From Alphaproteobacteria bacterium (GTDB taxonomy: Bacteria > Pseudomonadota > Alphaproteobacteria > SP197), in contig OZ219746.1 in NCBI GenBank assembly GCA_964291265.2, positions 192,001-256,000 on the forward strand: a stretch of DNA of 64,000 bases, given 5' to 3'. The notes beneath the pieces were generated by a model, which saw nothing but the letters and a program-made list of their open reading frames with translations, was not told the origin of the DNA and made no database searches. The first letter of the stretch is position 1; the number at the start of each line of letters is the position of its first letter. The translations under genes were made by a program, and so were the position numbers. Below are positions 25,534 to 27,153 of the stretch, piece after piece.

Positions 25534-25609
25534 TTGACGACTCATCCCGGAGTGCTTATTCAACGAGGCAATTGCTCCCCGCCGGACTCGCCGAAAGGCC
25601 CCGGCGGGG
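25534..25609 (+). promoter_or_regulatory. Putative sigma70 promoter followed by GC hairpin with GAAA tetraloop (original NYN gene leader)
   Basis: TTGACG (25534)-17 bp-TATTCA (25557); CCCCGCCGG-ACTC-GCC-GAAA-GGC-C-CCGGCGGGG (25577-25609). Confidence 0.55.
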
Positions 25610-25732
25610 TAAGCGTTCGCCCAAGGGGTGACGATGATGAGGATGACAGTGGCGACTACGCGTTGCTCCGGGACTCGCCAGCATTCGCTCAGTGCTGTGA
25701 TCGCCCCGATCACCGCGTGACCGAACACTTAC
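25609..25732 (+). mobile_element. IS66-type MITE copy 1
   Basis: Ends GTAAGCGTTCG...CCGAACACTTAC; internal sequence shared with three other copies; left flank CCGGCGGG (25601-25608). Confidence 0.85.
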
Positions 25733-25786
25733 CGTCGACGAGATGTTCATGGATCCTGATTCTAGGGTCAGAGGAGAGCGGTTTCA

Positions 25787-27007
25787 GTGATTAATGACGA
25801 TTCTGGCATAGGCGAACCAGATAAGGTGGACGGTGAGGGATCCAACCTGCGCGTTCGGGTACCGTTGTTTCCTGTTTACTCAGAGCTGCGCTATCTCTTG
25901 CGCGTGTGGCCCGGACGACCGAGAAAGCAGGTGACTGGGCTTCGCGCGAAAATTCTTGATTTGTGCGGTACTCCAGAGCACTCGGTGGATTGGACCGATC
26001 CCGCGACTTGGATCCCAGAGCGCTTGGACGGCAATGATCGTGAGTTGGCACAGCAGATCTGGGACGACTCGAATGGTGCGGTGAATCCCAGGCACGTCTA
26101 CGGACACTGGCTTCTAGCCATGCGATACGGCCTTCTCCAAGAAGATGGCGACGGGCTTCTCCAAATCACTGAAGATGGTCGCAATTTTCTTGAAGAGCCG
26201 GGAGGCAGGATAGAGGCTTTTGTTGACGAAGCGGAAGGGCTAGCCAAGTTGTTATCCATAGTGGCAGATACCGGACCTAGCCTGCGTGGAGGCCTACTCG
26301 ACCAGTGGGCAGACTACCTCAAGCGCAGTTCTTCAATCCGCGCAGAGTCCATGATCAAGAACACGATGGGTCGGCGTCTTGTCAATCTCGTAGCTCGTGA
26401 TCTGATTGAGCGAAGGGGGAGGCTGTATTCCGCGACACCCAACGGCTTGCGTTATCTCCAGGAGACCAGTAACGAAGGGAATGCTGTAGCCGGAAACCAC
26501 AATAAAGTGTGGGCATTGGTACAGCAGTACACCAAAACGGTGCGCGATAGTCTGCATGATCGGCTTCAGGACATGGAACCGTTTGCCTTTGAACACCTGA
26601 TCAAACGACTGTTGGAGGAAATGGATTATCGGAACGTGGAAGTCACCTCCCGATCAGGTGATGGCGGAGTGGATGTCGTCGCCGATATCGAGGTTGGTAT
26701 CACCTCGATCCGGGAAGTGGTCCAAGCCAAGCGCCACCGCAACCCGATACAGCGAAAGGATCTCGACGCGCTTCGAGGTTCCCTGTACCGCTTCGAAGCA
26801 GTTCGTGGAACTATCGTCACGACTTCTCGGTTCTCGAAGGGCACTCAGGACGCCGCATTCGCCACAGGAGCCGCCCCCATCACACTTGTGGATGGCGAGA
26901 AGCTGGTCGATTTGCTCGTCGAGCACGGCATTGCCGTCCGCAAGCGCACCATAGAGATGCTGGAAGTGGACGCAGATGCTATTGTCGCCATCGAGAAAGA
27001 CAGTTGA
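25787..27007 (+). CDS. Mrr-family (type IV) restriction endonuclease with long N-terminal region
   Basis: FEHLIKRLLEEMDY, SGDGGVDV, VQAKR, GTIVTTSRFS, ITLVDGEKL (Mrr_cat). Confidence 0.92.
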   Translation: MINDDSGIGEPDKVDGEGSNLRVRVPLFPVYSELRYLLRVWPGRPRKQVTGLRAKILDLCGTPEHSVDWTDPATWIPERLDGNDRELAQQIWDDSNGAVNPRHVYGHWLLAMRYGLLQEDGDGLLQITEDGRNFLEEPGGRIEAFVDEAEGLAKLLSIVADTGPSLRGGLLDQWADYLKRSSSIRAESMIKNTMGRRLVNLVARDLIERRGRLYSATPNGLRYLQETSNEGNAVAGNHNKVWALVQQYTKTVRDSLHDRLQDMEPFAFEHLIKRLLEEMDYRNVEVTSRSGDGGVDVVADIEVGITSIREVVQAKRHRNPIQRKDLDALRGSLYRFEAVRGTIVTTSRFSKGTQDAAFATGAAPITLVDGEKLVDLLVEHGIAVRKRTIEMLEVDADAIVAIEKDS

Positions 27008-27017
27008 CCGGATACTT

Positions 27018-27144
27018 GCAAGCGTTCGGTCAAAAGGTGACGATGATGAGGAGGGTCACGGTGGCAACTGCGCATCGTTCCGGGACTCGCCAGCATTCGC
27101 TCAGTGCTGTGATTGCCCCGATCACCGCGTGACCGAACGCTTGC
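27018..27144 (+). mobile_element. IS66-type MITE copy 2
   Basis: Perfect 15-bp inverted ends GCAAGCGTTCGGTCA...TGACCGAACGCTTGC; right flank CCGGCGGG (27145-27152). Confidence 0.88.
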
Positions 27145-27153
27145 CCGGCGGGG

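Follow-up and report, generated by a model that had tools for sequence, protein, structure and literature searches.

The gene of an Mrr-like nuclease lies between two IS66-type MITEs in the window, which is the whole 64,000-nucleotide stretch of alphaproteobacterial DNA that was analysed. The arrangement of the sequence argues that MITE, mrr and MITE probably moved together, in a single transposition, into a hairpin that precedes an NYN gene, where the target was the 3' arm, and that an IS66 transposase was probably supplied in trans.

The block is 1,536 bp long and there is no transposase gene inside it (Table 1). All of the coordinates from the sequence-only reading, which had described two direct elements of about 125 bp tightly bracketing the Mrr gene, hold. 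The two MITEs are in direct orientation and are 86–87% identical. The 8-mer CCGGCGGG is present immediately outside both elements, and the sequences that adjoin the elements on the inside, CGTCGACG and GGATACTT, differ from each other, as had also been read; the duplication is therefore found only outside the pair. The match goes beyond chance, as CCGGCGGG has 720 occurrences on both strands of 4.83 Mb, which is 7.5e-5 per site. In a second sample (X2) all four junctions, two outer and two inner, are spanned by contigs with 0 differences, which excludes an assembly artefact. Two MITEs around a transposase-free cargo, with an outer-only duplication of which one copy is seen at the empty site, give the unit the structure of a composite MITE transposon.

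Table 1. Features of the mrr unit and its site, further MITE copies, rpn units, and the intron-bearing helper isoform. Positions are those of the window unless a genome and contig are given.
Feature	Position	Strand	Remarks
GC-rich target hairpin, stem CCCCGCCGG / CCGGCGGGG	25577..25609	+	3' arm is the insertion target
Left target-site duplication copy CCGGCGGG	25601..25608	+	single copy in empty alleles
Left IS66-type MITE, 124 bp, GTAAGCGTTCG...CACTTAC	25609..25732	+	without own duplication; one of 68 two-ended genome copies
Putative captured leader of the cargo gene	25733..25786	+	RBS-like AGAGGAG at 25770-25776, read from sequence; presumed function
Cargo: intact 406-aa Mrr_cat nuclease gene	25787..27007	+	PADLOC candidate PDC-S02
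Right IS66-type MITE, 127 bp	27018..27144	+	perfect 15-bp inverted ends; without own duplication
Right target-site duplication copy CCGGCGGG	27145..27152	+	
Decayed 5' NYN-domain gene remnant	about 27153..27338	+	start codon of relatives missing
3' scrap of another IS66 transposase gene	27328..27464	+	fused to NYN remnant; 82-85% identical to many genome IS66 copies
Further MITE copy	28737-28859	-	
Further MITE copy	33105-33227	-	own exact 8-bp duplication
rpn (YhgA-like) unit	G000:C1:38865-40833		exact 8-bp duplication
rpn (YhgA-like) unit	G000:C2:64403-66252		exact 8-bp duplication
rpn (YhgA-like) unit	G000:C2:1597656-1601907		exact 8-bp duplication
rpn (YhgA-like) unit	G000:C2:3086228-3092790		exact 8-bp duplication
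rpn (YhgA-like) unit	G000:C2:3017695-3020825		exact 8-bp duplication
Intron-bearing helper isoform, 2,883 bp	G000:C2:374818-377700 and other copies		L060:2172-2796 is the intron piece

The cargo ORF covers the full model length of Mrr_cat (PF04471, 8.7e-29), and its best PADLOC model is the candidate system PDC-S02 (8e-137), at 454 bits against 76 bits for mREase_IV. The stretches DGGVD and VQAK, presumably the catalytic motif, are intact in the protein and conserved across 11 aligned homologs. There is no Pfam match in it to the N-terminal domain of the E. coli-type Mrr (Mrr_N), and 'Mrr-like nuclease' is therefore a safer name than 'Mrr'. That full-length homologs of 79–80% identity share its start and end positions indicates that the gene is intact. 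It looks foreign, having a GC content of 55% against 64–65% for the genome, and with the cargo as query no homologs were found in 32 family genomes at E<=1e-40 or in 400 class genomes at E<=1e-60. The product may give modification-dependent or abortive anti-phage activity, which would account for its retention. The mrr unit is single-copy in the genome; two metagenome scans for a second unit elsewhere were blank and plasmids gave no match, these being exact-word scans that are weak on absence. A search of genome contigs found two distant cargo homologs (62% and 61%), and ends of this kind were absent from the flanks examined. A second mrr-like gene, about 90% identical over window positions 26276-26940, is present in runs X1 and X2.

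The target hairpin has a predicted fold of -28 kcal/mol (z -2.6), and the insertion point is between it and a T-rich tail. It is present in four of 22 congeners, conserved at 42/42 nt in G005 and G019, 98% in G015, and 95% in G013, and in all four it ends in one CCGGCGGG, after which come a T-rich stretch and at least the start of an NYN gene; the intact NYN homolog in G015 matches PF01936. The NYN loci of G017 and G022 have no hairpin and were left out of the empty-allele count. The four congener alleles are not beside purD in the loci examined and are therefore taken as homologous modules, not as one and the same position in the chromosome. The only syntenic empty allele comes from run X3, which belongs with X1 and X2 to one study: an X3 contig that is syntenic at purD, and 96.6% identical over 24002-25610, departs from the window at 25610 and ends 43 nt past the site. 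Three X3 contigs departing at 25610 give a consensus (agreement 0.77) that is like the NYN leader and is not MITE, and a joint from 25610 to 27165 is seen in X3 and, at low depth, in X1. Two other X3 joints, 25733 to 27122 and 25738 to 27018, were left unused, having sides of less than 30 nt and unseen middles. The empty allele that had been predicted from the sequence, in which hairpin and NYN gene are joined by a single CCGGCGGG, is thus found both in the hairpin-bearing congeners and in the X3 contigs. It had further been claimed that removal of the unit restores a hairpin-to-NYN locus; the continuity is borne out, but the NYN gene here is a decayed remnant.

As an observation on the module itself, the 42-nt GC hairpin (window 25569-25610; L041-L044) and the T-rich tail before NYN are 95–100% identical in congeners, where the flanks diverge. 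The hairpin may be an attenuator or leader RNA belonging to a mobile NYN module, and Rfam, run on six loci, has no family for it or for the MITE. If the hairpin is a terminator or attenuator, it may be conjectured that the cargo is read from the NYN promoter. No forward promoter was called in a promoter scan of 25300-27300; by eye, there is a TTGACG-N17-TATTCA upstream of the hairpin.

The bracketing elements belong to a family of short non-coding sequences with inverted ends starting G(T/C)AA. A BLASTN search of the MITE across this genome and its relatives, as the sequence-only reading had proposed, gave 82 merged hits in the source genome, the sole positive among 33 family genomes searched; X3 contigs also carry the element, and G012 has 31-nt end matches only. 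A profile search found 94 copies after removal of overlaps, 68 of them with two recognisable ends. An 8-bp duplication of its own, with at most 1 mismatch and a 1-nt offset allowed, is present in 11 of these 68; the other 57 have none, and most of them are also without a matched partner. On contig 2 there are 16 adjacent MITE pairs less than 10 kb apart, against 7.5 expected (p 0.0015), a count that is inflated by a tandem array, and clustering was discarded as support for units for this reason. A 2010 review of IS66 by Gourbeyre may list IS66 MITEs and passenger-carrying forms.

There are 86 IS66 transposase-family matches in the genome. The IS66 load is very high, with at least three end families among these matches and with nested and tandem copies. 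No TnpB (PF05717) is found in the genome, the control being positive in 3/14. A weight-matrix scan found 316 ends, making 209 facing pairs 0.2–30 kb apart. In 26 of the 209 pairs the two outer 8-mers are exactly alike, against 0.007 expected with random flanks, and 2 further pairs match at 7/8 positions, against 0.2 expected. Twenty of the 26 exact pairs are copies of an element, here called the helper, with one PF03050 gene (1e-50), exact 8-bp duplications, and the same end family, so that the autonomous IS66 with matching ends and 8-bp duplications that had been called for does exist. The helper is 2.2 kb, and its sole ORF of at least 300 aa is 598 aa. The main segments of the copies are mostly 95–99% identical to each other, with an uninterrupted 600-codon frame in two, and the element has expanded recently. 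Its outer ends are identical to those of the mrr unit at 12–13 of 14 nt, and its right end matches the MITE right end at 23/26. This 20-copy single-gene (ISBst12-type) IS66 is, from its sequence, the likely source of transposase in trans for the mrr unit. Identity between the helper and the 124-bp MITE stops after about 26 terminal nt, and the MITE therefore does not look like a plain deletion derivative of the present element. The commonest helper isoform contains a piece of a group II intron, about 620 bp long (Rfam D1-D4 and D5-D6, no long ORF), that has spread with it.

The remaining six of the 26 exact pairs have no helper gene between them: the mrr unit, four rpn units, and an RTX-repeat unit, the last of which further contains an inserted transposase that is unrelated. 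The vehicle serves cargo other than mrr as well. All four rpn units share the same boundaries, each with a different exact 8-bp duplication, and a fifth has an exact duplication at a 1-nt offset (together L051-L054 and L064). One of the four consists of four tandem rpn genes, with one 77-bp MITE between genes. One rpn unit splits a DUF3644 gene at residues 238–240, the duplicated residues, of an intact homolog (93%/88% identical), and a different IS66 is nested inside its left element. The 135-bp left element, which is an internal deletion of the helper, is found only in these four rpn units. The cargo protein carries PF04754 and DUF4351 with four-residue C-terminal repeats, and PADLOC has no match for it. 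Thirteen of the 15 rpn loci lie between two MITE-type elements, against none of the 10 rpn loci scanned in congeners, over about 1.5 kb of flanking sequence. It is for this that the rpn units matter most, being a concrete route by which non-autonomous genes could move and multiply.

A pair of inverted MITEs with a 7/8 duplication surrounds a fibronectin-repeat gene of 1,785 codons. This fibronectin type III repeat gene has about seven copies (one at G000:C2:3323751-3329400, the others at six related loci), most 96–98% identical, two of them bracketed by MITEs and five without brackets. The rpn, fibronectin-repeat, and RTX-repeat units bear out the expectation of further cargo-bearing pairs. 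Enrichment of defence genes had been named as a sign of a system; there are four independent cargo types, of which two are defence-like, and this is too few to establish enrichment. Several other defence-like MITE pairs were rejected as units, having no common outer 8-mer: AbiEi/AbiEii with a GmrSD fragment, a PDC-S01-like ATPase, and four more rpn loci. In the first of these, an inverted MITE pair surrounds the GmrSD fragment and AbiEi/AbiEii (G000:C2:700821-704038, L062), and an rpn fragment lies just outside.

For the mrr unit to have moved as one piece, two MITE copies would first have come to flank the gene at a donor site elsewhere. The helper transposase, if it accepts any left-facing and any right-facing end of the family, may then have brought the two outer ends together and passed over the inner pair, moving MITE, gene, and MITE in one step, and the same end-pairing would be the origin of the rpn units at four to five loci. 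This reading is supported by the empty alleles, which keep one CCGGCGGG and then NYN, by the presence of a helper with matching ends and 8-bp duplications, by the solo MITEs that make the same duplication, and by the rpn unit at four loci with four exact duplications. It is further supported by the inverted fibronectin pair, which cannot arise by recombination into a resident MITE, and by the foreign look of the cargo. That the mrr unit is single-copy, and was found nowhere else, counts against it, repeated movement being indicated for the rpn unit instead; so do the 57 two-ended MITEs that have no duplication of their own.

The 3' halves of the left and right MITEs are identical at 63/66 positions (rank 7 of 703 pairs) and share three rare alleles and an unbroken identical stretch of 35 nt, where other copies reach no more than 27 nt, and the 5' halves show ordinary divergence (46/61 identical). 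This shows recombination or conversion between the two MITEs, and leaves room for a route in two steps, in which a solo MITE inserted into the hairpin and made the duplication, and a small circle of MITE and mrr later recombined into it. Such a route requires direct orientation, as is seen, and with the same outer ends would give the same duplication; the rpn array, in which one MITE lies among tandem genes, indicates that MITE-MITE recombination probably occurs in this genome. The two-step route is nevertheless unlikely, given that there is no solo-MITE allele at the site in the four hairpin-bearing congeners or the X3 contigs, that the homology is just 35–60 bp, that the resident precursor it requires for the rpn unit was not found alone in the genome, and that an inverted pair with a 7/8 duplication exists.

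Since the MITE interior does not look derived from the present helper, an extinct or foreign transposase may have acted. Taken further, the block might have been assembled already in another species and have been put in place by some other, or since lost, IS66 transposase, with the resident helper incidental. The foreign cargo, the mrr of about 90% identity in X1 and X2, and the lack of relationship between the MITE and helper interiors would all fit this, but it is very improbable, as the restriction of the MITE to one of 33 genomes and the X3 contigs makes the brackets look local, and the helper is recently expanded with ends that match. That two MITEs inserted independently beside a resident gene and share an 8-mer by chance can be dismissed, however abundant the MITEs (68 two-ended) and however GC-rich the 8-mer in a GC-rich genome, as such a match has a chance of about 1e-4 for each pair, neither MITE is flanked by a duplication of its own, and the relatives have clean empty alleles, lacking both gene and MITEs and keeping exactly one 8-mer.

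Beyond the transposition of the mrr block as one unit, there is the more tentative possibility, which is rather doubtful on present evidence, of genome-wide gene shuffling in this lineage without transposase genes. Any two IS66-family ends would then make a portable cassette, with mainly anti-phage genes kept or amplified (mrr-like, rpn singles, and the four-gene array), and this would supply the defined-end mobility of rpn that PMC10400941 did not find.

The principle of a MITE-bracketed cargo is already known from TIME-COMP and the integron mobilization unit, and what appears from the literature searched to be new is the IS66 version and the defined rpn ends. According to the available part of the report on Pseudomonas sp. 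ZM1, mobilisation in trans of TIME-COMP1 and TIME-COMP2 was demonstrated with trap plasmids, and these elements resemble the present unit in their two miniature elements, direct or inverted, their transposase-free cargo, and their outer-only duplication (PMC4133298). As described there, they have Tn3-family ends, 262-bp elements, and 5-bp duplications, against IS66-type ends, elements of 77–135 bp, and 8 bp here, and their cargo is a resolvase, DUF1652, or a replicon rather than a nuclease, rpn, or repeat proteins (PMC4133298). The name TIME in the strict sense was rejected for the present unit, its ends being IS66-type and its duplication 8 bp, not Tn3-type and 5 bp. In the Enterobacter cloacae integron mobilization unit and the MITE-flanked class 1 integrons of Acinetobacter a MITE pair moves cargo, as here; that cargo is a resistance integron, the Acinetobacter MITE is 439 bp, and the portions of the two reports available note no IS66 link (PMC9771954, PMC5444012).

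The restriction-modification units of Xanthomonas oryzae and Neisseria gonorrhoeae are also like the mrr unit in having a transposase-free restriction gene, an 8-bp duplication, and a clean empty site, and a trans-acting transposase is raised as a possibility in the accessible text (PMC2853133). Those units have single inverted repeats unique to the unit and, in that text, no helper, whereas here there are whole two-ended MITEs of a 68-copy family and a candidate helper (PMC2853133). The ISBst12 group of IS66 is described, in what is available of the source, as having a single ORF and an 8-bp duplication, with ISDge4 as a member (PMC12898284). The G(T/C)AA imperfect inverted ends and 8-bp duplications, and a helper with one DDE gene and no TnpB, agree with this group, from which the mrr unit differs in having the ends and no transposase (PMC12898284). 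Rpn proteins are anti-phage toxin-antitoxin systems, and the ends of their genes, in the part of the report available, vary, with arrays that show no target duplications and genes that are not autonomously mobile (PMC10400941). The commonest cargo here is likewise PF04754 with DUF4351 and C-terminal repeats, in tandem arrays too, but differs from the Rpn genes described there in its fixed MITE ends and exact duplications (PMC10400941). These fixed ends are the most useful addition to what is known of rpn mobility. No IS66-MITE composite or MITE-bracketed rpn was found in the literature searched, in which subscription papers are thinly covered; the rpn boundaries in the supplement of PMC10400941 and the repeat tables in that of PMC2853133 may be relevant to novelty.

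A defence-type gene would here travel in a 1.5-kb vehicle without a mobility gene, and annotation pipelines that seek transposases would miss such units. The pairing of IS66 ends is called insufficiently characterised in the accessible part of PMC12898284. With brackets, a candidate helper, filled and empty sites, and several cargoes in one genome, it becomes directly testable.

Downstream of purD there is a variable island of defence-like character, and the mrr unit is part of it. At window positions 20127-20984, 27547-28548, and 34600-36273 there are, by eye, PIN and DUF433/DUF5615 toxin-antitoxin-like pairs and an ankyrin-repeat-like ORF. Empty alleles of ten excised junctions were sought in the same genome, and a single one turned up, that of the second single-ended cassette. 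At 59064-62367 the window contains a transposase-free cassette with single degenerate IS66-type ends and the duplication CATTCCCT, a second copy of which is present at G000:C2:2785047-2787958. The cargo ORFs of the CATTCCCT-flanked cassette have no Pfam match, and one contains a DPPF motif of the kind found in DNA methyltransferases.
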